A DNA stretch of 46,120 nt, from positions 1 to 46,120 of IMG/VR virus record IMGVR_UViG_3300025451_000021. One strand, 5' to 3'. The notes below the pieces were generated by a model that was not told the origin of the DNA, did no database searches, and was given only the letters and a program-made list of their open reading frames with translations. Of the stretch, positions 7,160 through 46,120 are shown in pieces (position 1 is the first letter of the stretch; the number at the start of each line of letters is the position of its first letter). The stretch comes from a virus (lineage: Duplodnaviria > Caudoviricetes). The position numbers and the translations under genes are program-made.

Positions 7160-7186
7160 CGCGCAGTCGCAAAACGCGACTATAAT
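7157..7186 (+). promoter_or_regulatory. Sigma70-type promoter with palindromic operator
   Basis: Perfect TATAAT 7181-7186; inverted repeat AGTCGC-aaaac-GCGACT 7165-7181 in the spacer; weak -35. Confidence 0.65.
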
Positions 7187-7258
7187 AAGACCCATGGACA
7201 GGCAATCAAGCAAGTCCACCGCCCCGGCGGCACCGGGAATCCTGATAGGAGCAACATC

Positions 7259-7705
7259 ATGACCAAAGACAATCAACAAGCCTTAAACGCCTTTGCCGCG
7301 GCGCTGGCCAGCTGCAACACCCAGCAGGCCATCGAAAGCGCAGTGTCACAGTACATGCGCCAGTGGGCCGCACAAGAGCGCCAAATCAAAATCTACCCGA
7401 ACGGGTTGGCAAAGGTTGAGGTGCTGGATAAAGACATGCAGCTGATTGCTGAGTACACCCGGCCAGCAAAAGGTATCTGGATTGATGTAAAGGACGAAGC
7501 TGGCTACATGGTCAGCGAAAAGGCCTACTTGGATGGCATTGTCGAGTTTGCGGCAAGCATTGAGGGCGCAGCTACCGAGGACCAAAGCGATGATGTTTTT
7601 GGTGCGGACACCCGTACCGTATCCGACCGCCGCGAATCTGTTGTGCGTCAGTTGCGCAGACTGGCCGACATGGCTGGCAAGCTGGCCGAAAAAATCGAAT
7701 CTTGA
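7259..7705 (+). CDS. Hypothetical protein
   Basis: AGGAG RBS, 148 aa. Confidence 0.75.
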   Translation: MTKDNQQALNAFAAALASCNTQQAIESAVSQYMRQWAAQERQIKIYPNGLAKVEVLDKDMQLIAEYTRPAKGIWIDVKDEAGYMVSEKAYLDGIVEFAASIEGAATEDQSDDVFGADTRTVSDRRESVVRQLRRLADMAGKLAEKIES

Positions 7706-7796
7706 CCCCACCCCGTAGCCCCTGCCCAAGCGGGGGTCTCAGAGTGGCGTTACCACCCGACCGTGCGGCACACGGTATCCATCAAATGGGGCAATC

Positions 7797-8162
7797 ATGA
7801 CTACATCAAAAACTGCGGCAATACGACAAGCCCAAAAAGAAACGGGCAAGCCTATTCGGCGCTTTGCAACAGATTGGGTTTTTTACGGTCCATATCGTAT
7901 TGGTGGACACGATACGGAGATTCGTGCAATCAGTTATCAACACGCAGTCACAAAGCGCACGGCATGGGTTGCTGAGTTGGCGCTGCATGCAATGGGCAAA
8001 TGCGACGAATCAGCCAAGTCTGCAATTGAGTCTGAGCTGAACGACTCGTATGGTGCGCGTGGCGTGAGCAACTTGGTCGATTGTGGGATGGCAGCATTTG
8101 GCAAAGGCTCCACAAAGGCAGAGATTGCAGCAGCCGCACAGAGCTACTGGGATGCACGGTGA
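7797..8162 (+). CDS. Hypothetical protein
   Basis: 121-aa ORF, GGGG RBS, coupled to next gene. Confidence 0.7.
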   Translation: MTTSKTAAIRQAQKETGKPIRRFATDWVFYGPYRIGGHDTEIRAISYQHAVTKRTAWVAELALHAMGKCDESAKSAIESELNDSYGARGVSNLVDCGMAAFGKGSTKAEIAAAAQSYWDAR

Positions 8163-8380
8163 CTGACACCATTGTCATCAAAGCCCCACCCGGCACCAAA
8201 GCCCGGTGGGTGCACAAATCCCAGGCCCAGGGTCGCAAACTGAGCGACTGGGTGAGAGAGGCCGTAGACAGGCCCACCAACACCACAGCCACTGCGCCAT
8301 GCAAGCGGTGTGGCTCGGTCGTTCTGGTGGCCGACGGCCCTGGCATGTGGCAGTGCGCCCAATGTGGGCTTGCATCATGA
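8159..8380 (+). CDS. Ribbon-helix-helix-like protein with Zn ribbon
   Basis: IVIKAPPGTKARWV..SQ..GRKLSDWVREAV plus CKRC..WQCAQC. Confidence 0.6.
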   Translation: MTDTIVIKAPPGTKARWVHKSQAQGRKLSDWVREAVDRPTNTTATAPCKRCGSVVLVADGPGMWQCAQCGLAS

Positions 8381-8565
8381 CCCCCGACGACCTGAGAGCC
8401 TGGCAGTCCCACATGGGCTACACATACCAGACTGCAAGCGCAGCGCTGGGTGTCAACCGGGCTACGTATGCACGGTGGCTCAAGGTCGGCGCATCGCGCA
8501 CCGTCGCGCTTGCCTGCGCGGCATTAGCTGCTGGGCTTAAACCATGGATTAAAGATGCTGCCTGA
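8377..8565 (+). CDS. Small XRE-like HTH protein
   Basis: MTPDDLRAWQ..MGYTYQTASAALGVNRATYARW..VALACAA. Confidence 0.8.
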   Translation: MTPDDLRAWQSHMGYTYQTASAALGVNRATYARWLKVGASRTVALACAALAAGLKPWIKDAA

Positions 8566-22900: not shown

Positions 22901-25900
22901 TGAACCTGGCTGCATTGGAGTTTGATGAAGCCGGGGGGCTCACGCAGAAGGCTGTGCGCCAGTTTGTGCAGGCCATGCCCAAAGCAGAGCAAGGCGGACT
23001 GATTGACACCAACGGCCAGCCCAGCAAGCAGGCGGTGGACCGTTTACAGGCAGCGGTGTTCGCAAAAGCCTACGGTAACGACCAACTGGTTCGCCTGTTT
23101 GCACAAGCGCAAGACCCTGAAGCCAGGTTGATCCTGTCGGCCATGGCACAGCTTGCCCCAAAGATTGCCAGGCTTGAAGGGGCTGGCGCACTGGACATTC
23201 GGCCCATCATTGCCCAAGCGGCAGAGATTGCCGTGAACGCTCGCCGCGAGGGCAAGTCGATTGCTCTGGCTGCAAAGCAGATGGACATGGCAGCAGACAC
23301 AGCAGTGGGTGTGGTGCTGGATTTGTTTGCCTCGTCACCACGCAGCAACAAGTCCATCATCGAGGCGATAGCCAACGCTGCTGACTTCGCTTATGCTGAA
23401 GCCAGCAAGTCGGACATGGATATGTTTGGCGAGGTGCAACGCGCCAGCCGCGACGATGTAATCAACCAACTGAAGCCACAGAATGAACGAGCAAGCCAAG
23501 CAAATCTGGAACAGCCCACAGGGCGTGTCGCTGCTGAAAACAATGCTGTCGGGCAACAAGCCGACACAGGAACAACAGCAGACGCTGGCGCAACTGAAGC
23601 AGGCGGACCCACCCAAGAAGCCAATGGACAAGTAAACGAACCTGGCGCAGAATACTCTGTACGCCAGCAGTTCTCCCTGTTCGGCGATGAACAAAGTGAC
23701 CAACTCCAACTCTTCATCGATCGTGGACCTGACCCAGTACAGGCGGGACCGGGAGCAGTCGCTGCCCAGCGGGATGCAGTCGCTGCAATTGCGGACATAC
23801 AGTCCGTCTCCTCAATACTGGCCGCCGCCCTTACCCGTGACTACGCTGCCCGTCAAAGGATCAGCCTCGTTGGGCAAAAAGTAGCGTCTGCCGAAGACCT
23901 CGCCGTCCTGGCGCAGGTTTACCGTGACCCACGGTTTGAGACGTTCCGTGTGGTGTTCGTGGACGCCAACAACAAGGTGGTATCCCAGCTTGGCCTGACC
24001 AGTCGCTTGCCTGCGTCGGCTGCCGCATTAGTTGGTACGGACACATACGCCTATCTGAATGGCTTGTCAGCCACAGCCAAGAAGGCTGGCGCAACGGGCT
24101 ACTACCTGCTGCACAACCACCCAAGCGGACAAGCCAGGGCATCGACTTCAGATGTTCGACTGACAAACACGTTTGAGCAGCACTTGCCCGGACTTAAGTT
24201 TCAGTCGCATGTGGTCATCGACACCAACGAATACTCGACCATCGAAGGTGGTTTTGCCAACCTGATCAAAAAGGACTTTGGTGTTTTTGAGCCACTGAGC
24301 GGAAGCAACATCACATTCAACAAACCGGAAGATGTGGTTGCATACTCCAAGCGTTTGCAGGCTGAATCTGGCGCTGTCACGCTGATTGCCACAGACACAC
24401 AGTACCGAGTCAAGGGTGTTACCACGATACCTGCTGCTGAACTCAATGGACCAAAAGGCATGCTGCGCCTGAAGGTGGCGCGTGCGCTTATGCGCCTGCA
24501 GTCATCCAATGTCTTCGCTGTCGGGCGAGAGTCTGGTGCTCTCGCCAAGTTGAGTGGCATCGTGGTTGATGCCATCCACGTTGAAGATTCCGGCAGGGCA
24601 ACCAGTTTAACTGCCAGGGGTATCATCAACTCCACCAATCTTGGTGCATTCCCATCTGACCGCCGCACACGGGTAACGGTTGACAGCAGCCCTGAGTTTG
24701 CCTATCTGCGGTTTGACCCGTCAGCCATGAAGTCTGCTGGTCAGCGGGTGGCCGAGGGTGATCTGCTGACAACCTACACCCCCGCAGAAGTCACAGCACG
24801 CCAGGACGCAGCCAAGGTAGCAGAGCGCAAGGCTGCTGCTGACAAGCGTGCAGCAGATGAACAGGCGAAGCGCGAACGTGAGCGTGCAGATGTTGCACAG
24901 CGCAGTGTGGCCGCTGCCGATACGTTTGAACTCGGTGGGAATGCTGAGGACAACTTGAGTGGGCAGGAGGGGTTGAAGTTCAGTCGCACATCCGACATCA
25001 AATCGGCCCGCGTAGCACTTGCCAAGATCATGGAGAAAGGCGTAACCTCGCCTGATGATCTACGCAACCTGCTCAGAGTGCCCGGTTATTCAAAGTGGGC
25101 AAAAAGCACCATTGCTGGGGACGTGGCAGCCTCCGCCGAGCTACGCGACAGGCTCGCAAAAGAGTACCCAGGATCAGACTGGCAGGCCCCAAAACTCAAC
25201 GACCAAGGCATCATTACCTTGTATGCAGATTGGGTTGACCTCACAAGCGATTCCATTGCCAATCTTGCCAGAATAGCCGATGAGTTCGATGCGCCGATTG
25301 CCGTTCGCAATGGGGCCGTCAACAACGACTACGAAAGCAAAATCCTTCGAGCCAACGGATTCGAGGGGTACATGGGTGCTCAAGAGAGGATGGACCGGCC
25401 TTCTGCTGTGATGTTTTCTCACATCAGGCCAGCGGGTGGAATAACCGCCACAACACCGCTTTTCAGCCAAGGTGCCAAATCCCCTCGCACACCCATCAGC
25501 ACCATCACCCAAGCCATCGCCAAAGCCTACGGCAACCTCCTGCCCCGCCTCGAAGGAAAGGGTCTGGTGTCACTCACTCAGACCGAGGAAGAGGCCATTG
25601 CAGCCGCTGCACAGGCGCGTGCTGACAAGACCGGTGGTGATGTTGAGGTGATCAAGGTTCAGTTGAGGGCTAGTGTGTTGGCGAGTCAGCGTGGTACAAC
25701 TACGGGCATGCCGGAAACACAAGCGCCCGGCCCACAAGGTGACGCGCAACAGGGCGCTTCCACGGGTAATGCCGTCGCCGTTTCTCGTCAGATTGCACAA
25801 GCAATTCAGGACGATGACGATCCGTATGCAGATTACGGGTTGCGTGTTATTCCACCTGAAGCCGATGTTGTGGTGCAACCCGGTGATGAGCTTCCACCTA

Positions 25901-28900
25901 GTAATCAATGGGACGATGGTACGGATACTGGCGAGGCACTCGACGGCACGTCATCGGCACGAATAGACGGCGACACCGAAGGCGCTGCGTTGGAGGCTAT
26001 AAGGCTGATTGGAGCGCACGGCAAACCCGGCCCAAACGGCTACTACTACGGTGACCAAGTTGTCTTAATCAAGGGGAAGAAGTCTGGTGTAGGCGAAGAT
26101 GTGGGTGAAATCCTGTTGAATGACGCTGTTGTTGTTGCCACTTGGAGAAAGCCCGACAAAGGCAATAGCGAAGTCGCACCGAATGAGCAATCCACGCCCA
26201 CTTCTCAGGGCGTTGACATCCGTCGCTCCGCAGACGGCAACCTCGAAGGCTTCTTCGACCCAGCTACAGGCAAGTCATTCCTGATTGCCGACAACCTGAC
26301 AGCGGAAAGCGCACCGGGCACGCTGATGCACGAGGTGGGCATTCACATGGCGGCTGAAGGTAAGTTTGGTCCGATGTTTGATCGGGCGCTGACCGTGCTG
26401 AATGACGGCAGTCTGGAGTCCACAGGGGCACTGCGCCGTATGCAGGAGTCGGGTGAGACAAGCGGTGAAGAGGCCGCAGCGTACTTGGTGACCGTGTACG
26501 AAACCAATCGCACCAATGCGCCTGCATCTGTTAAGCAGTGGATCAAGGACTTCATTGCTGACGTTCGCGCCTGGCTGTTCAGCAAGGGTGTGCTGCTCAA
26601 GGCTGACCAGTTGACCATAGCCGACATTGCGGCTGTGGCCCGTGCGAATGCCAGTAGGATTGCGCGTGGTGGGCCGAATGGTGGGCCTGGTGGTGGGCAG
26701 GCATTCAGCCGCTCCGCCATGCCCGCCACCATCGAAGTTGACGGCAAGACCCGCTCAACGATGAACAGCAACGGCCAGCCGATTCATCCAACGCTTGATG
26801 GGGTGAGGAACTTCTGGAAGTGGTTCGGCGACTCCAAAGTGGTGGATGCCGAAGGCAAGCCGCTGGTGGTGTACCACGGCTCTTCGCGCGACATCGAGAT
26901 CTTTGCGGCTGGTGCCGACGAGGCCGGCCAATCCAATGGCAATCGCACAGGGGCATGGGGCTCATACTTCACGCCCAGCGCGGCAGAAGCGTCTATATAC
27001 GCAGAGATTGCTGGAGGCGACGGCCCACAAAATGTAGTGCCGGTCTATCTGGCGATCAGAAATCCGTATGTGATGAACCGGGCCGAATGGGGCAAGCACT
27101 CGCAAAGGACGGCGAAGGCGGCAACTACGGCAGAAGGCAGGGCCGATGCAAAAGCCGTGCGGGCCGGTATAGAGGCACTGGGCCACGACGGCATAGTTAT
27201 CCGTGATCGAGGATTTAATGACGAGTGGGTCGCCTTCAGCCCCACCCAAATCAAGTCCGCCACCGGCAACAACGGAGACTTCGATGGCACGAACCCTGAC
27301 ATCCGTCGCAGCGTGCGCGGTGGTGGGCAGCAGGCACAGCAGAACCTGGCACTGAACACGCCTTCGCCAGCGTGGATGCTGCCTGCATCGACCAAGACAG
27401 ACGCACTGGTGTACGAGATTCAGGACCAGAAGGTTGACCTGAAGCGCACACAGGAGGCTATCAAGGCAGCAGGGCGCACGATCACCGAGCCGTTTGACGC
27501 ACGCATGGCTGAGACGCTGATGCCTGGCCGTGTGGCCTACCGCACAGAGACGTTCCTGAAAACCGAAGTCGCGCCACTCATGGAGGCGATGGCGAAGAAC
27601 AACGTCACGCAGAACGAGTTGAGCGACTACCTGTTGGCGCGTCACGCACCCGAGCGCAATGCACAGATTGCCAAGGTGAACACTGAGATGCCAGATGGCG
27701 GTGCAGGCACAAACAGTGCTGGTGTGCTGATGACCACACAGGCTGCGCAGGACCACATCGCTGCACTGACCACTGGCAAGCGCATGGTGCTGCAGTTGCT
27801 GGCAAACAAGATCGACGCCATCACAGCCAGCACACGCGACTTGCTGGTGCGCGAAGGTCTGGAAAAGCAGTCAACGATGGACGCATGGACTGGTGCATAC
27901 AAGCACTATGTGCCGCTGTTCAAGGATGAGGCTGTGGAGTCGCCTGCGCACCCTATCGGCTCTGGCATGAGCGTGACAGGCAGTGCATCCAAGCGTGCGA
28001 TGGGTTCCGAAGGTGAGGTGACAAACATGGTTGCCCACATCCTCATGCAGCGCGAGGCAGCAATCACCCGTGCAGAGAAGAACCGGGTGGCGATGAGCCT
28101 GTACGGCCTGGCACTGAGCAACCCCAATCAAGAGGTGTGGACCACCATTCGCCCCAACATGCGTGCCGACAAGATCGGTGCCGAGTTGGCTGCGATGGGT
28201 GTCGATCCTGTTGAGGCCGAGCAAGGCATGCAGGGTGTGCCCACAATCCGCACCATCAACGCCGTGACTGGATTGGTGCAGGAAACGCCAAACCCGATGT
28301 ACAAGCGGCTGGAGAATGCGCTTGTGGTGAAGGTTGATGGCGAGGACCGGGTGATCCTGTTTAATGCCAAGAACGCCGATGCGATGAACATGGCGCGTGC
28401 GCTGAAGAATCAGGATGGCATCACCAAGATTGATTACTCAACTGGTGTGATTTCTCAGGCGCTCGGTTTCTTGTCTGAGGTTGCTGGCGCATCATCCAAG
28501 ACAACCAACAAGATTGTGGAAAAGACCAAATGGTTGAATGCGGCAAACGCCACACGCTACCTTGCTAGCATCAATACGCAGTACAACCCGGCCTTTGGCA
28601 TGGTCAACGTTGTGCGCGACATTGGTGGCGCACTGGTGAACCTGACAACCACTGGCATTGCTGACCAGAAAGCCAAAGTGCTTGGCGACATCCCAGCCGC
28701 CATGAAGGGCATTGCCCGTGACGTGCGAGGCGATCAAGCGCGTACACCGTGGTCTGATCTGTGGGTGCAGTTCCAAGAGGACGGTGGGCGAACGGGTTAC
28801 CGTGACCAGTTCATCGACCCGTTCAAGCGTGCAGAGGCTGTGCAGAAAGACCTTGATGCGCTGCAACGTGACAGCAAGGCATCGGCTGGCAAGGCTGCTC

Positions 28901-30177
28901 ACCTGATCCTTGATCTACTGGATGACTTCAACACCACACTGGAGAACGGTGTGCGGTTGTCTGCGTACAAAGCCGCATTGGACAAAGGCATGAGCCGCCC
29001 GGCTGCTGCGAAGATGGCGCGCGAACTGACGGTGGACTTCAACCGCAAGGGGCGCATGGGCCGTGAGATCGGTCCGCTGTATGCGTTCTTCAACGCATCG
29101 GTGCAGGGCACGGCACGCACCATCGAATCACTAAAAGGTCCAGCAGGCAAGAAGATCATCGCAGGCGGGTTGATGTTGGGCGTGATTCAGTCTCTGATGC
29201 TGGCCGCTGCCGGGTTCGATGATGACGAGCCGCCAGAGTTCGTGAAGGCCCGTGCATTCATCATCCCAATGGGCGACAAGAAGTACATCGCCATCCCGCT
29301 TCAGTTCGGCCTGAACGCACTGCCCAACACCGGGCGGGTGATCACCGACTTGCTGCTGACAGGTGGCAAGGACGCAGGCAAAAAGACCTTCAACGCCATT
29401 GGTGAAATCATGGGATCGTTCAACCCAATGGGTGGCGGCAACATCTTCACGGCACATGGCCTGCTGACCACTGTTGCGCCAACTGTGGCCGATCCAGCGA
29501 TTGACATTGGCATGAATACCAACTTTTCAGGCTCCAAAATCGGACGTGACCGCGCAGACTGGGATACGCGACCAGGGTTCAAACTGGCACGCGAAAGCAC
29601 GCAGCGCAGCCTGACTGGTCAGGCGTACATCGGCATCAGCAAGGCGATCAACGCTGCATCTGGTGGCAACGAGTTTAAGAAGGGACTCGCCAGCCCAACG
29701 CCAGAGCAGGTTCAGTATGTGTTCACCACTGCGAGTGGTGGCCTGTATCGCGAACTGGAAAAGACGTTGAATATCGCTGGCTTGAAGGCTGATGGGTTCG
29801 AAATCAAGCCACGCATGATCCCGCTGGGTGGGCGCTTCGCTGGTGAAGCTGACGATCAGGATACTCAGCGTTCACGGTACTACCGCAACTCTGAGCGCCT
29901 GGCTGCACTTGAGGCAGAACTGAAAGGCTTTGAGAAGGATGACAACGAGGCAGCAGTCAAGCGCATCGAGTCCGAGCGCAGTGATGAGGTTGATCTGCTG
30001 GGCGATTACAAGCACATCCGTCAAGCCATTACCAAGCTCAACAAGCTGGCAGCAGACAACATCAATGATGTTGAGATGCTGAAGGAGTTGGATGCCGAGC
30101 GGCTTGAGTTGATGCGCGAACTGAATGACTCGGTACGCAAGCTGGAGAAGCGCAGCGAGTTGTTCAAGCGAGACTGA
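19963..30177 (+). CDS. Giant polyvalent internal virion protein (SLT, DdrB/ParB-like, JAB/RadC, zincin-like, ART-like and LPD38-like domains)
   Basis: AESRF..GATGLMQFMP..ASYN; LQNRDR..IAGNGR; LLHNHPSG..S.SD..HVVID; HEVGIH..EEAAAY; PLVVYHGS..G.YFT..GHDGI; TVDFNRKG..LYAFFNAS.QG. Confidence 0.85.
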   Translation: MNLFQLMTDGVNLDALPTESETKREPIAFEPSPGGRFSVPSDLNAAFDAAASDFGIDPDVLRAVAYAESRFHPDVVSGKVKSKTGATGLMQFMPKTAQEYGIDPLDPVQSIFGAAAYLRKSLDKFDGDYGKAVASYNTNPNRKDFDAEDWDARMPAETQGYLRTVFTAADQLKSGKAERPLPAGVEPSKAGAGRGVVNPTRNAPVPDTGDETARLAARYKAPDAPQQGGFIQSVGDFFKPAPTSVLESYKPTATEQQAANAQRLRYGAGPIKGDVLVAANEVASGNANSSSPTVNAVAKQMQERGDTFTGYAQSKNTPILKEGARDAKAAEFRSAGEWAVDSVSALAQGSVSIPLLPASILAPGGDTAKTLRSWRDAWSEQESDVLKAQRVVLKERIQSEEGFAGKYATTVLELVTNPALGLSEAIKQVPNYLAVIGASRFASGAVGAGFNAIEKSSPTLALANALSSGAVKGGAQATAATAGGMAASVVMTSGDAAGDVYETLTDPNKTPKKVWEQNEDYQALIQQGLSHKAAVMQIAEAKARFAAAVVAPLGLFGFMGAESALATKGIAGLAASFGPKAAAKTFGKEIVGENIEEGGTKWGGNVVTSTVDPRVKWDEGVAEAAATATVTSAPMAGLAARSQLSAPPAQTQDPRNGLIAAGLLDPQTYDGGIVGAAGTANPLLEQLKRKPAPTVESQPTTPQVPPTVTPQAPVTPDAAKTQAVDNIAAAIKELEGGTTQTAPVPAGQQAVDDGAAPMDAAQQGATQGQAEVGAVDGAGQSESAGALTQQPVLQNRDRSNPASITQMQSIASNPDYGRLGFSRDFANGAPVVAGAEQNVPAQQRGKQDTAVAVDGTRIPVQYAVVDAGEVLTSNNVDGTSNTAYGDANTPAIRAIAGNGRVAGLTAAYRQGTAAQYKQELMADTALHGVPAEVIQGMQNPVLVRVMPQSSVTANIGDLSNTQGNLSLSAVEQAKNDVSRVNLAALEFDEAGGLTQKAVRQFVQAMPKAEQGGLIDTNGQPSKQAVDRLQAAVFAKAYGNDQLVRLFAQAQDPEARLILSAMAQLAPKIARLEGAGALDIRPIIAQAAEIAVNARREGKSIALAAKQMDMAADTAVGVVLDLFASSPRSNKSIIEAIANAADFAYAEASKSDMDMFGEVQRASRDDVINQLKPQNERASQANLEQPTGRVAAENNAVGQQADTGTTADAGATEAGGPTQEANGQVNEPGAEYSVRQQFSLFGDEQSDQLQLFIDRGPDPVQAGPGAVAAQRDAVAAIADIQSVSSILAAALTRDYAARQRISLVGQKVASAEDLAVLAQVYRDPRFETFRVVFVDANNKVVSQLGLTSRLPASAAALVGTDTYAYLNGLSATAKKAGATGYYLLHNHPSGQARASTSDVRLTNTFEQHLPGLKFQSHVVIDTNEYSTIEGGFANLIKKDFGVFEPLSGSNITFNKPEDVVAYSKRLQAESGAVTLIATDTQYRVKGVTTIPAAELNGPKGMLRLKVARALMRLQSSNVFAVGRESGALAKLSGIVVDAIHVEDSGRATSLTARGIINSTNLGAFPSDRRTRVTVDSSPEFAYLRFDPSAMKSAGQRVAEGDLLTTYTPAEVTARQDAAKVAERKAAADKRAADEQAKRERERADVAQRSVAAADTFELGGNAEDNLSGQEGLKFSRTSDIKSARVALAKIMEKGVTSPDDLRNLLRVPGYSKWAKSTIAGDVAASAELRDRLAKEYPGSDWQAPKLNDQGIITLYADWVDLTSDSIANLARIADEFDAPIAVRNGAVNNDYESKILRANGFEGYMGAQERMDRPSAVMFSHIRPAGGITATTPLFSQGAKSPRTPISTITQAIAKAYGNLLPRLEGKGLVSLTQTEEEAIAAAAQARADKTGGDVEVIKVQLRASVLASQRGTTTGMPETQAPGPQGDAQQGASTGNAVAVSRQIAQAIQDDDDPYADYGLRVIPPEADVVVQPGDELPPSNQWDDGTDTGEALDGTSSARIDGDTEGAALEAIRLIGAHGKPGPNGYYYGDQVVLIKGKKSGVGEDVGEILLNDAVVVATWRKPDKGNSEVAPNEQSTPTSQGVDIRRSADGNLEGFFDPATGKSFLIADNLTAESAPGTLMHEVGIHMAAEGKFGPMFDRALTVLNDGSLESTGALRRMQESGETSGEEAAAYLVTVYETNRTNAPASVKQWIKDFIADVRAWLFSKGVLLKADQLTIADIAAVARANASRIARGGPNGGPGGGQAFSRSAMPATIEVDGKTRSTMNSNGQPIHPTLDGVRNFWKWFGDSKVVDAEGKPLVVYHGSSRDIEIFAAGADEAGQSNGNRTGAWGSYFTPSAAEASIYAEIAGGDGPQNVVPVYLAIRNPYVMNRAEWGKHSQRTAKAATTAEGRADAKAVRAGIEALGHDGIVIRDRGFNDEWVAFSPTQIKSATGNNGDFDGTNPDIRRSVRGGGQQAQQNLALNTPSPAWMLPASTKTDALVYEIQDQKVDLKRTQEAIKAAGRTITEPFDARMAETLMPGRVAYRTETFLKTEVAPLMEAMAKNNVTQNELSDYLLARHAPERNAQIAKVNTEMPDGGAGTNSAGVLMTTQAAQDHIAALTTGKRMVLQLLANKIDAITASTRDLLVREGLEKQSTMDAWTGAYKHYVPLFKDEAVESPAHPIGSGMSVTGSASKRAMGSEGEVTNMVAHILMQREAAITRAEKNRVAMSLYGLALSNPNQEVWTTIRPNMRADKIGAELAAMGVDPVEAEQGMQGVPTIRTINAVTGLVQETPNPMYKRLENALVVKVDGEDRVILFNAKNADAMNMARALKNQDGITKIDYSTGVISQALGFLSEVAGASSKTTNKIVEKTKWLNAANATRYLASINTQYNPAFGMVNVVRDIGGALVNLTTTGIADQKAKVLGDIPAAMKGIARDVRGDQARTPWSDLWVQFQEDGGRTGYRDQFIDPFKRAEAVQKDLDALQRDSKASAGKAAHLILDLLDDFNTTLENGVRLSAYKAALDKGMSRPAAAKMARELTVDFNRKGRMGREIGPLYAFFNASVQGTARTIESLKGPAGKKIIAGGLMLGVIQSLMLAAAGFDDDEPPEFVKARAFIIPMGDKKYIAIPLQFGLNALPNTGRVITDLLLTGGKDAGKKTFNAIGEIMGSFNPMGGGNIFTAHGLLTTVAPTVADPAIDIGMNTNFSGSKIGRDRADWDTRPGFKLARESTQRSLTGQAYIGISKAINAASGGNEFKKGLASPTPEQVQYVFTTASGGLYRELEKTLNIAGLKADGFEIKPRMIPLGGRFAGEADDQDTQRSRYYRNSERLAALEAELKGFEKDDNEAAVKRIESERSDEVDLLGDYKHIRQAITKLNKLAADNINDVEMLKELDAERLELMRELNDSVRKLEKRSELFKRD

Positions 30178-38863: not shown

Positions 38864-39414
38864 CCATTTACCCGGCATCAGGAAAATGGTTGCAGACGGG
38901 CGCTGTGCCCGTGCAGCTCATTGCCGCCCTGGCCGTTGCCGCCGCCCTGGTAGCCGCGTACTGGGGCATTTACACAACTGGCAGCAGGGCGGGGGCAGCC
39001 ACGGTCAAACAGCAGTGGGACCGAGACACCGCGTCACGCGCCCTGCGCACTGCCGAGCAAACCATTGAGCACCGCAACACCGAGCGGGCGCTGATTGACA
39101 ACGCTGCCATGCAGCAAAGGAGCCGACATGCCCAAGACCAACGCATTGCTGCTGTGCACGCTGCTGAGCTTGACCGCCTGCGCAACCGCCCCGAATTGCG
39201 GGCCGCAGACCGACCCGGTGAAGCCGCCGACCCTACCGCCACTGGTGTGGGATGCACCGGCGCGGGACTGGCAAGGGGAGATGCGGAGTTTCTTACTCGG
39301 TTTTCTGCCGACGCAGCCCGACTTGCCGCCGAGCTTGGGCGCTGCACCGCCAGTTACGACGCTGCCGAGCGGGCGTTGAGGGGTGCTGACGGCGGCGGTG
39401 CCGTGGAGCGGTAG
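38860..39414 (+). CDS. Rz-like inner-membrane spanin
   Basis: N-terminal TM, coiled coil, Cys residues, nested lipoprotein gene. Confidence 0.75.
   Translation: MTIYPASGKWLQTGAVPVQLIAALAVAAALVAAYWGIYTTGSRAGAATVKQQWDRDTASRALRTAEQTIEHRNTERALIDNAAMQQRSRHAQDQRIAAVHAAELDRLRNRPELRAADRPGEAADPTATGVGCTGAGLARGDAEFLTRFSADAARLAAELGRCTASYDAAERALRGADGGGAVER
39128..39379 (+). CDS. Rz1-like outer-membrane spanin, nested in +1 frame
   Basis: MPKTNALLLCTLLSLTAC lipobox, Pro-rich tail. Confidence 0.75.
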   Translation: MPKTNALLLCTLLSLTACATAPNCGPQTDPVKPPTLPPLVWDAPARDWQGEMRSFLLGFLPTQPDLPPSLGAAPPVTTLPSGR

Positions 39415-39480
39415 CGGGGAGGGGTTTTGCTCCAGTGGGTTGATCGGTTGATCAGCCTTTCTTGCAGGGATTGGCGTGCA

Positions 39481-40497
39481 TTAATCGCTTCTGTCACTCT
39501 TAGCGACTGTTTTGCCAATGCATATTTGTCGATCATCACCATCAACTTCGTTAGCAGTCAAAAGCATGTCGCCCTGCACCGCCGTGTCGCCAGCGCCGAC
39601 TTTTGCTATCCGCTCGCACGCCAGATCAAAAAACCGCCTGTCTCGCTCAATCCCAACAAACGGCAGTCCTAGTTCAGCGCAAACCGCGCCAGTTGTCCCG
39701 CTTCCAAGGAACGGATCGCACACGACGCCAAAACCCCAAAGCAGAACCATGCGCCGCGCCAACTCGTCAGGAAACTTTGCCGGGTGGTCGTCGTTGTTCC
39801 GCACGGAAGGAATCGCCCAAACTGACCGGCTACCCCATTGCCCCCACTCTGACACTTGTAGGCGTGCGCGGTCAAAAGTCGGCACGCTGCCGGCCTTGCG
39901 GAAGCACAGCACATGCTCGTGTTCGTCAACCGCACGGTCGCTCAGTGAGTGGTATTGACAGGTTTGCCAGCAGGGGTCTTTCACCCAAACCCGCGAATCG
40001 TGCAGGTAGTACCCGGCCACGCTGGCCAAGTCCGAAGCCGCCGCACCAGAAAGAAAAACTCTTGTCTGTGCCTCCGCTTTGCTGCCCCTTGCGTTGTTCC
40101 CGAAAAGCCTCCGGTCTATTGTTTGCTCGCTGCACGCCAGTGCCTCGGCAATCTCCTTCTTGTTGCGCCCCCTGCCGGCTATCGCCGCGTCAATTACGTC
40201 CTGCGCGGTGACTGTGTTCTTCCTGCCAACAACGTCAGCCCGCACGGGGGCTATCAGCTTGTCCTCATGGCAGCGCACATCAGCCAAGTTCAAAACCACA
40301 ATTTCCGCGTCAGTCGCAGCAAAGAACCCCGACATCAGCGCCAACCATTCAAGCCTGCCGCCGCGTTCGTATTCCTTGCCAACCCCATAAGGCGGGCTGG
40401 TCACTATCGAGCCTGCCGCGACCGATGGCAAAATCTCGCGGCAGTCTCCGTGCCACAGTTCGCAATTCCCGATTGTCACTTTCTCAGCCATCATCAT
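39481..40497 (-). CDS. Beta-class amino DNA methyltransferase (probably N4-C) with HTH-like insertion
   Basis: GDC, TSPPY, SVW.I, HPAKFP, DPFLGSGTT, GIE. Confidence 0.9.
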   Translation of the reverse strand: MMMAEKVTIGNCELWHGDCREILPSVAAGSIVTSPPYGVGKEYERGGRLEWLALMSGFFAATDAEIVVLNLADVRCHEDKLIAPVRADVVGRKNTVTAQDVIDAAIAGRGRNKKEIAEALACSEQTIDRRLFGNNARGSKAEAQTRVFLSGAAASDLASVAGYYLHDSRVWVKDPCWQTCQYHSLSDRAVDEHEHVLCFRKAGSVPTFDRARLQVSEWGQWGSRSVWAIPSVRNNDDHPAKFPDELARRMVLLWGFGVVCDPFLGSGTTGAVCAELGLPFVGIERDRRFFDLACERIAKVGAGDTAVQGDMLLTANEVDGDDRQICIGKTVAKSDRSD

Positions 40498-40572
40498 CCT
40501 TTCGTTTGCCTGCTAACACGTCGCTCAACACGGACGCAGGCGATAAAGCCGCCTGCGCCGGTTAGCTAGGCG
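39551..40572 (+). mobile_element. Integron-like cassette A (methyltransferase, inverted)
   Basis: Core GTTAGCAG 39550-39557 is the exact reverse complement of CTGCTAAC 40510-40517. Confidence 0.75.
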
Positions 40573-40578
40573 TTACGG
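40511..40578 (+). repeat. attC-like site 1
   Basis: TGCTAAC..GCT(C)AAC(A)CGG(A)CGCAGGCG-loop-CGCCTGCG CCG GTTAGC..GTTACGG. Confidence 0.85.
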
Positions 40579-40584
40579 TGCCGT

Positions 40585-40956
40585 TCATGGCTTGGCATCC
40601 ATAGCAGCGTCAATGTCATTGTCAAGATTGGCTGTGTTCACCCACTCACTGCCACGGCGGTCACTGTTCTGCTTCCATGCCAGATGACACAGCGGGTCGA
40701 ACCGCTCATGCTCTGATCGCAGCCACTGATACCTCGCAGCATCCTTCTCAGCCTCTGCCAACCGCTTTGCCTGCCTGTCACACAGGTCTTGCAACTCAGA
40801 CGCAATGATTGTCAGCCTCTCCACCTCGTCGCACAGGGCGATGACTGTTGCTGGTGTCATCATGCAGATAAACGGCATGTTTCCTTCACCGGGGTCAATC
40901 CACGGTTGTGGTGTTGCAGCTTCAGCCGCTGCCTTGATTGCTTTGGTGTCGATCAT
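40585..40956 (-). CDS. Ead/Ea22-like protein
   Basis: AAEAATPQPW..FI...TPATVIAL.DEVERL..KDAARYQWLR..LD..IDAAM. Confidence 0.75.
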   Translation of the reverse strand: MIDTKAIKAAAEAATPQPWIDPGEGNMPFICMMTPATVIALCDEVERLTIIASELQDLCDRQAKRLAEAEKDAARYQWLRSEHERFDPLCHLAWKQNSDRRGSEWVNTANLDNDIDAAMDAKP

Positions 40957-41168
40957 TTCCAAATGTCCTTATAAATGCTGCCGGGTTGCCCCTGCTTATT
41001 GCTGCCAGTGCATTCAAGTCTGTGATCGCTTGCCTTTGGGCAACGCTTGTTGCCACACACGGGGCACAGAGTCATTTGTGTGCTGCTAAGTGGGACCTTC
41101 CACTTACCGACAACGGTGTGCAGGTCGTGTTCCTTGATGCAGCGGTGGCATTCGCATTGGTCAGTCAT
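40953..41168 (-). CDS. Small Cys-rich protein
   Basis: CECHRC..CPVCGNKRCPKASDH..CTGSN..GQPGS. Confidence 0.75.
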   Translation of the reverse strand: MTDQCECHRCIKEHDLHTVVGKWKVPLSSTQMTLCPVCGNKRCPKASDHRLECTGSNKQGQPGSIYKDIWK

Positions 41169-41886
41169 CGCTCACTCCCAACTTCGCCCACACAGCCTGC
41201 TCAATCGTTCTTGCGTCAGATAAGAACAACTCTCTGTTCTGTGCGCTTGACACGTACTCAACGTCCAGTGCTGTAAGTATTTCGCTGTCACTCAGCTTCA
41301 CAGCCTTGCGGGGTTGTGCTGTTCGCATTTGCCACCCGAACACATCAGGATTCTCAAGCGACAGTCCACGGTTGCCTGACCACTCTTTGATTCGCTCGAC
41401 CATCGGTGATGCATTCGAGCACGACCCCACTTCAATCATTACTTTGTGGCTCGTCAGGAACCCGGCAAAGTCAAATATTGCACCAGCCACAACATCATGG
41501 CTTGGCTCCTGCACTGGTGCTGGTTGCGTGTGTAACCAACAGTCGCAATCGGTCGATGCAGACAGTTGCTCTTGCGTCCCAACACGCTCACAGCCCAAGC
41601 ATTGGAGCAACACTGGCTTCGAGGCTGGTGCTGGTTGTTGCTCCTGCACTGGTGCTGGCTGGGGTGCTGAGTTTGCATCTCGCAACCCCATCACATAGGC
41701 AACTTGCAATTGCGTCAATGGGTCAAGCTTTTCAGCCTGCTCCACCGCTGGTTGTTCAAGCGCGGCTCTGAGTGCGGTGGCGGCTTCAGCAAACATCGAA
41801 GACGTAAGCACGTTGTCGGCTTCATTCAGCGCCTCAATTGCCTGCCGCAGCAGTTCGCGGCTCACTGTGATGTTAGGCGTATTCAT
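41161..41886 (-). CDS. Mosaic hypothetical protein with PAPVQE linkers
   Basis: Start MNTPNITVSRELL at ATGA overlap 41886; PAPVQE twice; KLSDSEI. Confidence 0.7.
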   Translation of the reverse strand: MNTPNITVSRELLRQAIEALNEADNVLTSSMFAEAATALRAALEQPAVEQAEKLDPLTQLQVAYVMGLRDANSAPQPAPVQEQQPAPASKPVLLQCLGCERVGTQEQLSASTDCDCWLHTQPAPVQEPSHDVVAGAIFDFAGFLTSHKVMIEVGSCSNASPMVERIKEWSGNRGLSLENPDVFGWQMRTAQPRKAVKLSDSEILTALDVEYVSSAQNRELFLSDARTIEQAVWAKLGVSDD

Positions 41887-42779
41887 GCAGCGCACCGCAC
41901 TGCGTAGTCTTTTGTCACCACGCATGTACCACGGGCAGCGGCGACCACCGTGGCGTTCACCCAAATACGTCGGTCGTCTGCCAGCCGCCTGATGTGGCCG
42001 CGCCGCAAGTGTTCGCGTGGCGAGCGGTGGCCTCCAGTTTCCGCACCTTCTCCAGCCGAGCCCGCCCTGCCTGGCGCGGCGATGGTCAGGAGGTGATAAG
42101 TGTCGAAAGGCAGTGCGGATTTGATTTTCTTGCCTGCGCGTTTTGGATCGCTTCGATGAGCCTGCACATTTGAGCAATGCAAGATGTTCAGGAAACAGAG
42201 AAGCGCCCCAAGTTCGTCCATGTAGTCAGACATAGGAACGCGCGGATTCTGGAACGCCGCCTTGATTGCGGGGCGACCGGAATAGCTCATGCCACGATCC
42301 AGATAGCCGACATTCGGAATGGCGCACTCTGGCAGCACCCGCCAAAGGCCATCATGTCGCGTCCAAAATGCGACCGTGGCAACGATGTAGTCGCCGTGCT
42401 CCCTTGCGTATACAACACGCTTGGGCGCGCTCACAGAGTCCCCGGCCTCGTACTGAGGCACGCCGTTCACATGGCCCACAGGCTCGTCCATTTCTCGGTC
42501 GCGCCCATTAGATTGGTATTCCAGTGCAATGCATGGGTACGGCAGCCGCAGCGGCACCGACTCGTCCAGCGCTCGGAATTCATTGTCGTCATACAGGCGC
42601 CCACCGTCCGGCAGGATGAACTTCGTAGAAGACCCGTGCAGATCTACCACGCTAGACAGCAAAGCCCGCCGATCATGCTCGATCCCCGGAACCGTCAGCA
42701 GGTCCATGCACTGCCGCGCAAGTTGCCGGCTGTAATTCAAGTGTTCCATCATCATGTCTCCAATACGCCTAACTGTGGG
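41873..42779 (+). mobile_element. Integron-like cassette B ending in a mini att site
   Basis: GTTAGGCGTATT 41872-41883 is the exact reverse complement of AATACGCCTAAC 42762-42773. Confidence 0.7.
41883..42755 (-). CDS. Conserved phage hypothetical protein
   Basis: LRLPYP..ALEY; C-terminal SPREHLRRGHIRRL....IWV. Confidence 0.8.
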   Translation of the reverse strand: MMMEHLNYSRQLARQCMDLLTVPGIEHDRRALLSSVVDLHGSSTKFILPDGGRLYDDNEFRALDESVPLRLPYPCIALEYQSNGRDREMDEPVGHVNGVPQYEAGDSVSAPKRVVYAREHGDYIVATVAFWTRHDGLWRVLPECAIPNVGYLDRGMSYSGRPAIKAAFQNPRVPMSDYMDELGALLCFLNILHCSNVQAHRSDPKRAGKKIKSALPFDTYHLLTIAAPGRAGSAGEGAETGGHRSPREHLRRGHIRRLADDRRIWVNATVVAAARGTCVVTKDYAVRCAA

Positions 42780-43033
42780 TTAGACGGCGCATCCTCCACC
42801 GTCAGCAGATAGATGCCGTACTTGCTCGGCCACTTGTCGCCATCGGCTTTTGCCTTCGCTATCGTGTCGCGGATCGCCGCGTTTGCCGCTGCTTGTGTTG
42901 CAAACATCGTCGCCGTTCCGCCGCGCCTCAAAAGTTGGTCTGGCGCAATGTCCCCATCCTTGCCGTATGCAAGCGGCGCGAACCATTCCGGCATTTCTTT
43001 GCGCAGTGGTGCGCTCATCACGATGTAGCCCAT
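42752..43033 (-). CDS. Hypothetical protein reading through the mini att site
   Basis: AAGGA RBS; ends ..PSNPQLGVLET. Confidence 0.7.
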   Translation of the reverse strand: MGYIVMSAPLRKEMPEWFAPLAYGKDGDIAPDQLLRRGGTATMFATQAAANAAIRDTIAKAKADGDKWPSKYGIYLLTVEDAPSNPQLGVLET

Positions 43034-43267
43034 GTCTATTTCCTTTCTTCGTAGTCAGCGCATTTGCGCTTGTAGCCGTAGTCAAGATCGTGCGGGTTGT
43101 CGTTGCGCTGCGAGTACCATCGCGGCTTATGGCCTTTCTCGCAAACCTTCGCGCCCGGCACGTCCTCGTCGTTGTAGTGCCTGCATTCGTCGCAGTGTCT
43201 CGTTTCCACCGTCTAACCCTCCGCTCCAGTGGGACGCTCGCTATGCTCGCGCCCCTGAGCTATGGCG
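42780..43267 (+). mobile_element. Integron-like cassette C
   Basis: GTTAGACGG 42779-42787 is the exact reverse complement of CCGTCTAAC 43209-43217. Confidence 0.75.
43036..43209 (-). CDS. 57-aa Cys/His protein (below ORF-track cutoff)
   Basis: Manual translation METRHCDECRHY..VCEKGHKPRWY..GYKRKCADYEERK; GTG start adjacent to the attC R'' box. Confidence 0.6.
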   Translation of the reverse strand: METRHCDECRHYNDEDVPGAKVCEKGHKPRWYSQRNDNPHDLDYGYKRKCADYEERK

Positions 43268-43273
43268 TTACTT
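43211..43273 (+). repeat. attC-like site 2
   Basis: GTCTAAC..GCTC(C)AG(T)GGG(A)CGC-loop-GCG CCC CTGAGC..GTTACTT. Confidence 0.85.
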
Positions 43274-43651
43274 CGCTGCTTTTGGCTCAGGCCGTGGCAG
43301 CATCCACACCCGACCCATGCCGTCGCCGTAGTCCTGCATACTGCGGACCATGCATGTCGGGTGCTTGCGCTCGACGTGCTTCTTGATTGCGTTGGCGAGT
43401 CGATTCACGTCTGAGCTGGGGCACTTGATGCACTGGCCGGGCTTGAGCTTGGACAGCAGCGCGTCGTACTTCCCTTCTGGCGACACCCTGTGTTCAGGGA
43501 TGGGGTCGTCACAAATTGACAGCCCGCCAATATCAACAGTTGGGGTGGCTGGCTTTGGTCGAATGCGTGTGTTCATGGCTTTTTCTGGTGCGGCCACTGG
43601 CTGGCCGATGAATGGGTTGATGCCGCCGACGAAAGTGGTTTTCGCTGTCAT
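43268..43651 (-). CDS. Hypothetical DNA-binding-like protein
   Basis: I.DDPIP..KYD.L..KLKPGQ.I..GRVW; ATGA overlap. Confidence 0.7.
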   Translation of the reverse strand: MTAKTTFVGGINPFIGQPVAAPEKAMNTRIRPKPATPTVDIGGLSICDDPIPEHRVSPEGKYDALLSKLKPGQCIKCPSSDVNRLANAIKKHVERKHPTCMVRSMQDYGDGMGRVWMLPRPEPKAAK

Positions 43652-44139
43652 GCCGACATCCCGCTGATAGCCTGGCGCGGGTCTCGCTTGCAAAACGTCG
43701 CGCTGTTGATCGGGCTTACCTTCTTGATGACGGTCTGCTGTGTCTTTGGTGGTACGCCCTCAATCCCCATCGGCGCGGAGTGAGTCACGAACGTGTCGCC
43801 GCGTCGGCTGGGCAGGGTGAGCGCATCGCCGCCTCCCTCGCGCACATGCCATGGGCTGGGGGTGTAGTCGCCCTTGGGGCGGAATGAAGGTCCGCGCAGC
43901 ACAGGCGCATCGCCCTGTTCTTTCGGTGCCCGTGGCACATCTGATGTGGTGGAGTACCAGGCCGTGGAGCGGTTGTCTTCGGCCCGGTTCTCAACGAGGT
44001 ATTTGCCAGCCAGCTTGGTCGCGTTCTCGGCTACTTGCTTGCGGGTCACATTCGTCAGCAGCAACGAGATTTCCAGCGACGACTTGCCGGGGTTGGCCTT
44101 GATGGCGGCAAGGATGCGGGATGAGAGGGTTCCGGTCAT
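43648..44139 (-). CDS. Protein with N-terminal winged-helix-like domain
   Basis: RILAAIKANPGKSSLEIS..VTRKQV....KL. Confidence 0.65.
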   Translation of the reverse strand: MTGTLSSRILAAIKANPGKSSLEISLLLTNVTRKQVAENATKLAGKYLVENRAEDNRSTAWYSTTSDVPRAPKEQGDAPVLRGPSFRPKGDYTPSPWHVREGGGDALTLPSRRGDTFVTHSAPMGIEGVPPKTQQTVIKKVSPINSATFCKRDPRQAISGMSA

Positions 44140-44411
44140 GATTCCAGCCATTCGAAAACGGTTTTGACTCGCACGTTGTGGGCACGCGCCTCACGCAGCA
44201 CGACATTTGGGGCAATCTCAGCAGGCGTGATACCCGGCAGCACGGCCACGCCATCGCAATCACGCAGAGCCGTTCCGTCCGTGTGCTGCTGGCCTGATGT
44301 TGCAAATCCTTGGCGCTCAAGTGCTGCTCGGGCTTTCGCGAATGCAATTGCGTTGGCTGCCGGGAGGTTGAGCTGGGGGCCAACGATGAAGATGGTTTTT
44401 TGTTTGCGCAT
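44136..44411 (-). CDS. DUF4406-like protein, degenerate
   Basis: IFIVGP...P..N..AF......L...G..L.DCDGVAVLPG. Confidence 0.6.
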   Translation of the reverse strand: MRKQKTIFIVGPQLNLPAANAIAFAKARAALERQGFATSGQQHTDGTALRDCDGVAVLPGITPAEIAPNVVLREARAHNVRVKTVFEWLES

Positions 44412-44423
44412 GTGTTTGGGTAT

Positions 44424-44447
44424 GAAAAAACCCGCACTGGGCGGGCT
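44424..44447 (-). terminator. Rho-independent terminator
   Basis: Minus strand CCCGC-ccagt-GCGGG-TTTTTT. Confidence 0.7.
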
Positions 44448-44467
44448 GTGTATGGGGTTGAAGCGGG

Positions 44468-45409
44468 TCAATCTTTGTAGTCCAGATTGATTACCTTGAA
44501 TGACCACGTTTGATCTACCGCGCGGACAACGACTCCTTCGCCGCGCCATCCGTTGGGGTACTGGATGGCAGCAAGTTTGCGCAGTTCGTCGGCGGTGTGT
44601 AGGCGTTGCTCAACAGGTATTTCGCGCGCAAGTGGCATTTCGGTTGCCGGGAATTGCTTGCGTGACAGCCTTGTCCACTGACCATTGAGTCGCACGAATG
44701 CCCCAAACAAGCGGCCTTCCAGGTTTGTCAGGCCCATTGGGTTGCCTTGCACGCCGGGGCCGACGACTTCAAATTGCACGGCAGTGCCAAACGGCATCCC
44801 TTCTAACTTGTACTTGCGCGCAGTTGTCCAGTAGACGTTGTGTGCCCCGGTCTTTGTAGGCTCTCGCAACTCCCAATTTCGAGAGGCGACATGTAAGCCG
44901 CTTTCATCAACCCATGCTGTGCAGCTTGAGCCATCGGCTTTTTCTGTCACGTAAAACGGCTGCGTCATCAGTTGCTCAAAGTACACAGTCTGGAAGTTGG
45001 GCTCGTCGGTCGTGGGCAGGAATGACGGGAATGCACCGACGGCATCGCCGCCCATACCTGCTGGGATTGGCTTTTCGTACTTGGTGACGCCCAGGGCCTC
45101 GGTCAAGTCTGTGCCGGGTGGCATGTCGGGGGCGCCCGAGACAATCAGGCACTCGCTGGGAACGCCTTTGAACCGAGCCATGCGCACGCGCCAATTGTGC
45201 CGCTCCATGAATGCCCAGCGGTCACTGGGAGGCAGGATGGCATCTTGCAGGAACACGGTCACCATGTCGCCCACCTGGGTGGCATTGGACACGACGCCGC
45301 TCCACTTGCCAGATTCGCCGCACACAACCACCGCCTGGATGATGAGGTCAGCACCTGGGATGCTGGCCGTTTCGGTGATGCGGCCAACCACTGCGAGAGA
45401 TTTTTTCAT
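44468..45409 (-). CDS. ATP-dependent RNA ligase (DRB0094/Rnl2-like)
   Basis: IPGAD.I OB-like N-terminus; FPSF.P.TDE; TEKADGSS motif I; SRN; GPGVQGN; EGVVVR; SFKVIN. Confidence 0.88.
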   Translation of the reverse strand: MKKSLAVVGRITETASIPGADLIIQAVVVCGESGKWSGVVSNATQVGDMVTVFLQDAILPPSDRWAFMERHNWRVRMARFKGVPSECLIVSGAPDMPPGTDLTEALGVTKYEKPIPAGMGGDAVGAFPSFLPTTDEPNFQTVYFEQLMTQPFYVTEKADGSSCTAWVDESGLHVASRNWELREPTKTGAHNVYWTTARKYKLEGMPFGTAVQFEVVGPGVQGNPMGLTNLEGRLFGAFVRLNGQWTRLSRKQFPATEMPLAREIPVEQRLHTADELRKLAAIQYPNGWRGEGVVVRAVDQTWSFKVINLDYKD

Positions 45410-45451
45410 TTTCAATCCTTTTGTGCCGCCAGCGCTTTACTGGCGTGCGTC

Positions 45452-45961
45452 TTAGAAAGGTATGTCGTCGTCCATGTCATCAAACCCGCTGCTGCTCTGC
45501 GCTGGCGGCGGCGCTGGCGGGCGCTGGCGTGGTGCGTCATAGCCTTGCTGCGGCCGTGGTGCCGGTGCGGCGGTGCGCTGCTGTGGCTGCTGTGGCTGCT
45601 GTTGCTGCTGGCCCTGCCGGTCACGGTCGCCGCCCAGCAATTGCAGCTCGGTGGCCACAATTTCCACGGTGTTTTTTTCCTGGCCCGATTCGCGGTCGGT
45701 GTACTTGCCGTACTTGATGCGGCCCTCCACGTAAATGGGGTGGCCCTTGCGCACGTACTCGCCCACGATCTCGGCCAGGCGTTCAAAGAACTGCACGCGG
45801 TGCCACTGGGTGTCCTCGATGACCTCGCCCGTTTCGCGGTTCTTGCGCTTTGATGTGGTGGCCAGGCTGATGCTGGTGGCTGCTTTTCCGTCAGGCAGAT
45901 AGCGCAGCTCAGGGTCGCGGCCTACGTTGCCCAGCAGGGTGACTTTGTTCACTGATGCCAT
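45452..45961 (-). CDS. ssb: Single-stranded DNA-binding protein
   Basis: MASVNKV.L.GN.GRDPE; WHRV; DDDIPF tail. Confidence 0.97.
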   Translation of the reverse strand: MASVNKVTLLGNVGRDPELRYLPDGKAATSISLATTSKRKNRETGEVIEDTQWHRVQFFERLAEIVGEYVRKGHPIYVEGRIKYGKYTDRESGQEKNTVEIVATELQLLGGDRDRQGQQQQQPQQPQQRTAAPAPRPQQGYDAPRQRPPAPPPAQSSSGFDDMDDDIPF

Positions 45962-45963
45962 GG

Positions 45964-46119
45964 TCAGGCCACCTTGCTCATCGCGTGCACCACGGCGCGG
46001 AAAATGAAGTCCTTGGCCTGCTGCTCGCGTGGTAGCTGGTCAAAGGGCACCATGCATGGGTGCTCTTTCTTCTCGGCGTCCTTGACGGGGCCATACACCC
46101 AGCCCTCGTCCTGCTTCTG
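45964..46119 (-). CDS. RyR-domain protein, 5'-partial
   Basis: Manual translation GWVYGPVKDAEKKEHPCMVPFDQLP.EQQAKD. Confidence 0.8.
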   Translation of the reverse strand, partial: QKQDEGWVYGPVKDAEKKEHPCMVPFDQLPREQQAKDFIFRAVVHAMSKVA

Positions 46120-46120
46120 C

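Follow-up and report, generated by a model that had tools for sequence, protein, structure and literature searches.

In the usual integron, the gene of each cassette lies on the top strand of its attC recombination site, a rule that is not absolute, and the integrase gene, intI, is read against that strand. The gain of small accessory genes in phage early operons that stay intact is usually ascribed to illegitimate recombination. The subject of this study was a group of three integron-type gene cassettes in the early genes of the virus contig IMGVR_UViG_3300025451_000021, a linear record of 46,120 bases that is 89% complete; it was examined whole and is called the window here. Loci fetched for comparison are cited by L numbers, genomes by G numbers, and metagenome runs by X numbers.

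The initial annotation, which recognized the cassettes, held that attC sites are rarely reported in phages; a precedent has in fact been published. Qi et al. (2023; PMC9892861) found 17 clusters of attC sites lacking an integron integrase (CALINs) among 10,705 phage genomes, and IntI1 recombined five of the six phage attC sites tested. Like the window, these clusters have two or more attC sites without intI, and methylase cargo. In the available text of that paper, TJE1 and PH101 are presented as typical arrays, and the passages on orientation do not describe antisense genes. The TJE1 cassettes, when checked here, were forward; for another of the published CALINs (MW202573, 2069–3883; L227), the attC matches lie on the strand opposite the genes, on which the main text, as available, does not remark. 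That study, in the available text, shows no empty sites, and its phages with intI carry captured chromosomal or class 1 pieces. PMC13366799, in the part available, does no more than cite Qi et al.

Insertion at GWT (attG) sites outside attI, with gene disruption, off-site excision, and loss of attC by slippage, was described by Loot et al. (bioRxiv 10.1101/2022.09.11.507474). The cassettes of the window, like the single attC sites lacking an integrase (SALINs) and attG insertions of that preprint, lie at GWT sites outside attI. The preprint, in whose available text the word "phage" occurs twice, concerns bacterial chromosomes, whereas in the window the targets are phage early genes, the cassettes are reversed, and their junctions are either crossed by reading frames or the source of a start codon. 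Unusual cassettes of class 1 and class 2 integrons (PMC12901181) also have a shortened boundary site that may still recombine; those sites, in the available part of the paper, are attI remnants, whereas that of the window is an attC minus its hairpin. The chromosomal integrons of Burkholderiales share attC sequence types and spacer lengths with the window but have their own intI and attI, and 84 of their 94 cassettes are forward (2 reverse, 8 unclear). Literature searches for cassettes inverted in phages, or for an IntI lineage resident in them, found no description, in a coverage that left out most subscription journals. Phage attC clusters and attG insertion are already published; a pool of inverted cassettes and a phage IntI lineage were not found in the literature searched. 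The attC cassettes of the window are real and mobile; they are also reversed, and they occupy attG-type sites.

attC sites and reversed genes

The three segments had been predicted to carry self-complementary ends of 8, 12, and 9 bp, and these were exact: 39550/40510–40517 (8 bp), 41872/42762–42773 (12 bp), and 42779/43209–43217 (9 bp). The next-best GTTA/TAAC pair within 39414–46120 was 5 bp. In 2000 dinucleotide shuffles, three pairs of at least 8 bp occurred together once and a 12-bp pair never; a single 8-bp pair was found in 144 of them, so an 8-bp match alone is weak.

The claim of two full attC sites was borne out by a grammar scan and by a covariance model, which placed both with the + strand as top strand. 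The model was built only from 64 attC sites of intI-linked arrays in bacterial genomes and is therefore independent of phage DNA. It scored attC1 (40511..40578) at 41.7 bits and attC3 (43211..43273) at 34.5 bits (E 1e-8 and 8e-7, as rough values); the next match scored 14.2 bits and the middle site 10.5. attC1 is composed of R'' TGCTAAC, a 5-nt spacer, L'' GCTCAACA, a stem-loop, L' GGTTAGC, a second 5-nt spacer, and R' G^TTACGG, and attC3 of R'' GTCTAAC, CCTCC, L'' GCTCCAGT, L' CCTGAGC, TATGGC, and R' G^TTACTT, with spacers of 5 and 6 nt. Both have R'' (RYYYAAC-like) and R' (GTT) boxes at their ends, paired L'' and L' boxes of which L'' has an extra base, and spacers of 5 and 5–6 nt; spacers of 5+5 are common in bacterial arrays too. 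attC1 folds strongly, with a z-score of −3.8 for the whole site and −4.2 for the core. A 30-nt pattern of attC3 was found in 15 viral stretches, one of which is a copy of this phage. An Rfam scan gave three chance-level matches only, and the attC sites were absent from the output of a general repeat finder. An attC1-like stretch of 57 nt without annotation (81% match over 72%) was also seen in 19 plasmid records, mostly of Burkholderiales. The window has at least two attC sites with no intI nearby, as in a CALIN, yet the two belong to separate insertions with backbone genes between them.

It is next to inconceivable that these sites are chance palindromes or terminators. A single 8-bp match in 7% of shuffles and the weak folding of attC3 speak for such an origin, but it is refuted by the breakpoints shared among loci and by the empty allele described below. 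The end pairs, covariance matches, and shared boundaries confirm that the three units are integron-type attC cassettes.

The cargo is encoded entirely on the − strand, opposite in sense to the attC top strand, a point absent from the initial annotation. Among loci fetched with genes of the window, all 84 of 84 grammar matches were antisense to the query gene. A caller based on open reading frames (ORFs) scored 90 cassettes as reverse, 2 as forward, and 19 as unclear at the cargo loci, and 23, 3, and 3, respectively, at viral IntI loci; in 36 bacterial stretches it scored 2 reverse, 84 forward, and 8 unclear. A cruder caller gave 89 forward, 1 reverse, and 7 unclear in bacteria. The junctions are absorbed into the operon: the methylase of cassette 1 and a 93-amino-acid (aa) ORF of cassette 3 read through them, cassette 2 gives a start codon, and R' of attC3 gives a stop. 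Both insertion targets are bare GWT sites in coding sequence, with no wider homology at the crossover.

We read the locus, with good confidence, as three cassettes, with genes that are antisense to their attC sites and follow the direction of the phage early transcript, inserted at two short G^TT sites in early genes, likely by IntI acting in trans. Each unit would have come in as a circle, and recombination would have joined its folded bottom-strand attC to a double-stranded GWT (attG) site. Cassette 1 would have split a small gene, cassette 2 would have replaced the first codons of the gene at 41161–41886, and cassette 3 would have joined behind cassette 2. The attC2 hairpin would later have been deleted between R'' and L', locking cassette 2 in place, and the cargo would be expressed from the phage early transcript. 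The inverted build would come from phage-resident integrons whose intI is read as an early gene.

Cassette boundaries, empty alleles, and the collapsed middle site

Cassette 1 (39551..40572, + strand, 1022 bp) starts at a G^TT crossover (39550..39553, +), a GWT attG-type site in codon 6 of a resident gene. Its gene, antisense to attC, encodes an N6/N4 DNA methyltransferase of 338 aa (39481..40497, −; PF01555, E 1e-22; PADLOC type II methyltransferase, E 3e-70). The methylase ORF has no stop within the cassette and runs 22 codons beyond the junction, and its homologues align to residues 1–316. The gene that was split, of about 70 codons, is the last of the early arm and converges on the spanin gene; its distal part lies at 39354..39550 (−; ORF 39354–39545), and its 5' stub starts at 40588 (−), in the backbone stretch.

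Forty-three loci were fetched with the methylase, the copy of the phage being excluded and some of the loci being near-copies of one another. Similarity was lost at 39545–39550 in 40 of them and further in for 2; 1 had no match. The cassette-start motif was present in 39 of the 43, behind 31 different 15-nt flanks. One locus (L018) was 99.8% identical across exactly 39550–40572, with unrelated flanks, and then continued into a GAT site; GAT follows R' in L019 as well. A locus without attC (L063) has an uninterrupted homologue of the split gene, and excision of cassette 1 in silico restores a single 70-aa frame. An empty allele was found in an independent metagenome (X2, one of four runs), where position 39548 is joined to 40571 so that 1022 letters are skipped and 5 are shared. 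The first of the two empty sites that had been predicted thus exists almost letter for letter, in L063 and X2. In four array starts (L035, L038, L039, and L066), GTCTAC lies 5 nt before G^TT and is a possible second docking motif. In L137 (8800–8870), a fragment of the methylase-cassette end is fused to another gene, which suggests that cassette ends may be reused by new cargo.

Cassette 2 (41873..42779, +) starts at a G^TT crossover (41872..41875, +) in an Asn codon near the start of the resident gene at 41161–41886 (−), whose start codon now comes from the cassette end. It encodes a 290-aa protein (41883..42755, −), again antisense to attC. Six metagenome matches to the cassette were obtained, one being the window itself; the other five lay in three other contexts, all bounded at 41872 and 42773. 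One of the related loci (L016) is 99.3% identical from 41872 onward, within a long array. Another (L062) retains the native start of the interrupted gene, MTDNITVSRELL, and lacks the cassette, and run X5 has an allele free of the cassette alongside a contig in which cassette 2 is inserted at the 41872 point. A homologue at 62% in L015 is without cassette ends, and the gene family thus also exists outside cassettes.

The middle segment end, attC2 (42767..42785, +), is a cassette boundary, as had been noted; it is not merely an unfinished site, as the initial annotation implied, but a collapsed attC. It reads R'' GCCTAAC, TGTGG, G^TT, and the hairpin core, from after R'' to L', is missing; it scored 10.5 bits and has neither the L boxes nor the hairpin. 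Intact cassette-2 copies have a full attC at their end, of 41.7–42.8 bits, with a right spacer of TGTTGG or TGGTGG in two of three contexts, and in the X5 contig R''–L'' is still present at the cassette-2 insertion. Comparison with these copies makes deletion between the near-repeats R'' and L' the simplest reading of the hairpin loss. A cut at L'' was ruled out, because the spacer that was kept is of the right-hand type. The collapsed site would block excision of cassette 2, and with its two boxes it might still accept cassettes. Further collapsed sites (R'', 5 nt, G^TT) were seen in L041 near 1579, L042 near 2953, and L032 near 4018; the spacer kept in L041 and L042 looks like the left-hand type, so that collapse may go both ways. 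In L016 (2690–2990), the attC of cassette 2 breaks off past its left half; next come a small gene and another attC in which the same 17 nt recur, so that a half-site is duplicated.

The protein of cassette 2 had 633 homologues, and PF26125 was precomputed on 5 of 120 among the homologues listed. The nearest Atlas clusters score 0.98 and carry PF26125 on 27–38% of their members. Searches of local Pfam, PADLOC, NCBIfam, and PDB gave no match, and local Pfam was also silent for relatives labeled PF26125. As a lead only, we regard it as a possible counter-defence protein of the AcrVA2-like family.

Cassette 3 (42780..43267, +, 488 bp) contains two antisense ORFs, of 57 aa (43036–43209, −, GTG start) and 93 aa (42752–43033, −), neither of which matched a family in profile searches. 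The second continues across the collapsed site into the start of the cassette-2 gene, which it overlaps; the left spacer of attC3 has the sequence GGAGG, 9 nt ahead of the GTG with which the first begins. All three of the other loci (L065, L066, and L067) match 42779–43269/70 at 64–75%, each with different flanks. R' of attC3 contains the TAA stop of a gene at 43268–43693. The second predicted empty site, by which the target at 41872 would continue directly into this flank, did not hold: past attC3 comes the stop codon of another gene instead of the right half of the target at 41872, which makes the predicted site a chimera. L062 continues into the gene's own start, and the predicted junction was absent among the joints listed. 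The flank at 43268 may derive from off-site excision or from exchange between arrays.

The shared boundaries and empty alleles agree with the earlier proposal that these are cassettes whose breakpoints of gain and loss lie at G^TT. They also bear on an alternative in which the attC-like sequences serve as conserved linkers, and phage homologous recombination rather than IntI exchanged the modules. The attC1 and attC3 types are indeed near-identical across many phages, and such exchange could have produced the chimeric flank at 43268. However, the empty allele and the cassette ends share 5 letters only, 31 unrelated left flanks meet an identical G^TT, and R'' and R' match across each unit, as predicted for a circular intermediate. 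Homologous recombination would explain reshuffling between arrays but not entry into coding sequence, and we consider it an unlikely source of these insertions.

Possible sources of an integrase

The absence of an integrase, claimed for the window from inspection, extends to profile searches: TIGR02249 and PF00589 found no intI and no tyrosine recombinase in the 46,120-base record (89% complete). A 100% identical contig, a copy of the phage, extends the right end by 879 nt and has no integrase-sized ORF in the added sequence. No attI was seen, as the left flanks of both insertions are coding sequence and the attI motif of phages described below is absent from the window; the flank at 39550 was ruled out as an attI on the same ground. 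A recombinase of the phage's own, IntI or a smaller Xer-like enzyme, could lie in the unsequenced 11%, since the record is linear and the copy adds only 879 nt. In the phages that carry intI, however, the gene lies at the far end of the early operon beside integrase and lysis genes, and the corresponding junction here (39415–39550) has no such gene or attI motif; carriers of the cassettes that are at least 90% complete also lack IntI. We judge a recombinase in the missing part very unlikely.

An enzyme acting in trans, which the initial annotation assigned to the host or to a recombinase outside the window, is consistent with the absence of intI; it need not be the host's, because temperate phages with their own IntI carry the methylase cassette family. 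The IntI scan of cassette carriers covered 49 viral records, from 50 of 53 loci, and found full IntI in two. These two (G019, L136 8905–13000; G043, L137 5562–9400) are temperate phages in which tail or lysis genes are followed by a phage integrase, an early-strand intI, and attI, and then by reversed cassettes, with early genes as far as the repressor. G019 carries the methylase family of the window at 64%. An alignment of the two IntI sequences retrieved 31 viral IntI loci (L176–L206). These loci and G019 and G043 share a conserved attI about 50–90 nt before the intI start and reversed cassettes, the set lying before a phage integrase. The attI motif was found in 24 of the 31 viral IntI loci and in none of 30 bacterial intI loci. 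A second, phage-type integrase lay within about 4 kb of intI in 16 of the 21 viral loci checked (107 ORFs listed, 65 scanned). Where intI is an early gene, only reversed cassettes would be transcribed, which would explain the inverted layout. In one locus (L190), intI (7001–8017) and its array were seen between the terminase and portal genes (704–2704 and 8329–9963) and not in an early operon.

In an IntI tree, the viral rows fell on one side of a branch that separated 22 from 31 rows with support of 100/97, and in a second tree, with the closest bacterial matches included, a branch separated 10 from 33 rows with support of 91. The best bacterial IntI matches among 401 genomes were 56–67% (the set includes the unpublished G350, on which nothing rests). 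The 67% match, which clusters with the viral rows, has the attI of the phages together with reversed cassettes and a second integrase.

The competing source is the host. IntI over the cut-off was present in 87 of 201 genomes of the order Burkholderiales (one of the 87, G079, is unpublished), and the attC types of these genomes match attC1 and attC3; a host enzyme is plausible on both counts. The phage itself gave only hints of a host: SSB matches to Burkholderia and Ralstonia phages are a weak pointer, and the capsid matches point elsewhere. Among 185,579 species genomes, the methylase-cassette pattern was found on 7 contigs of metagenome-assembled genomes (MAGs) with attC arrays, with phage-family genes in some and IntI over the cut-off in 3 of the 7; these contigs are too few and too fragmentary to name the host. 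In its strict form, the alternative is that only host chromosomal IntI moves the cassettes and the phage IntI lineage has no role for phages such as this one. That most carriers have no intI fits this account. Against it, bacterial arrays are almost without reversed cassettes, and they lack the cargo of the window beyond a 33% methylase domain match, whereas the methylase family is present at 64% in a phage integron; host IntI moving cassettes between phage DNAs would still be compatible with these differences. We regard this strict form as possible, and would sooner doubt it than accept it. As to the enzyme that inserted the cassettes of the window, cargo and layout give a phage IntI lineage, from a prophage or a co-infecting phage, about an even chance; a host chromosomal IntI comes second, with somewhat less than an even chance.

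Several observations weigh against the interpretation of the locus as phage cassettes moved in trans by such a lineage. Forty-seven of the 49 carriers lack an IntI over the cut-off, among them all six with a completeness of at least 90%, so that the link to phage IntI is made only by shared cargo and layout. The clustering of viral IntI was favoured by the use of two members of the set as query, 7 of 60 and 20 of 63 rows were dropped from the first and second trees, and near-copies inflate the counts. The empty allele in X2 is a single 155-nt contig with a depth of 4.1 and 37 letters on its short side, and excised circles were not seen among the joints listed for the metagenome runs. About 11% of the genome is missing. 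With a z of −0.4 for the whole site and −1.2 for the core, attC3 is not set apart from shuffles by its fold; its L boxes do pair, with bulged bases, and a bacterial site of the same type has a z of −1.9. Finally, the cruder orientation caller gave two short cassettes of G019 as forward, which on inspection of their sequence are reversed.

Resident genes and the biology of phage cassettes

The + strand of the record carries the replication, packaging, virion, and lysis genes, ending with the spanin gene at 39414; on the − strand, the small genes of an early arm run leftward from the right end as far as about 39354. Between the two insertions, 40573..41872 (−) is phage backbone; it was tried as a fourth cassette and ruled out, as it has no attC match, and it is common piecewise to L062 and L063, both without attC. 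It contains an Ead/Ea22-like gene (40585–40962, −; PF13935, E 5e-4, under the cut-off) and a further ORF (40953–41168, −), followed by the gene at 41161–41886 that bears the cassette-2 target. In the latter, three 22-nt repeats at 41505–41661 encode "PAPVQE" linkers, at which relatives exchange domains. The virion region includes an ORF of 3404 aa (19963–30177). The terminase large subunit (8555–10942, 795 aa) has a long part without a profile match, possibly an insertion such as an intein. A blastn search of 39500–43400 against 50,697 cultured-phage records gave no match, and relatives sought through the flanking genes were only the copy of the phage and distant matches.

The window shows gene gain at a defined base by integron rules, with filled and empty alleles, replacement of a gene start, and a fixation step, and it ties the arrays of integrase-less phages to a phage-resident IntI lineage. 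To the published phage clusters it adds a single locus at which the whole history can be followed, from alleles with and without a cassette and entry into coding sequence to the replacement of a start codon and the loss of a hairpin. The cargo, a methylase and the AcrVA2-like lead, suggests a role in counter-defence. More broadly, it may be, and we think the odds roughly level, that an IntI lineage resident in unrelated temperate phages, and read early, maintains a mirror-image pool of cassettes suited to the early operon, with ends that are read through and with start codons and ribosome sites where cassettes meet. Phages without an integrase would tap this pool through bare GWT sites and fix what they gain by loss of the hairpin, and the process would be a source of site-specific mosaicism and of counter-defence genes. 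If the pool is phage-made, it bears on the origin of cassettes, and the attC context would offer a route by which counter-defence genes may be mined.

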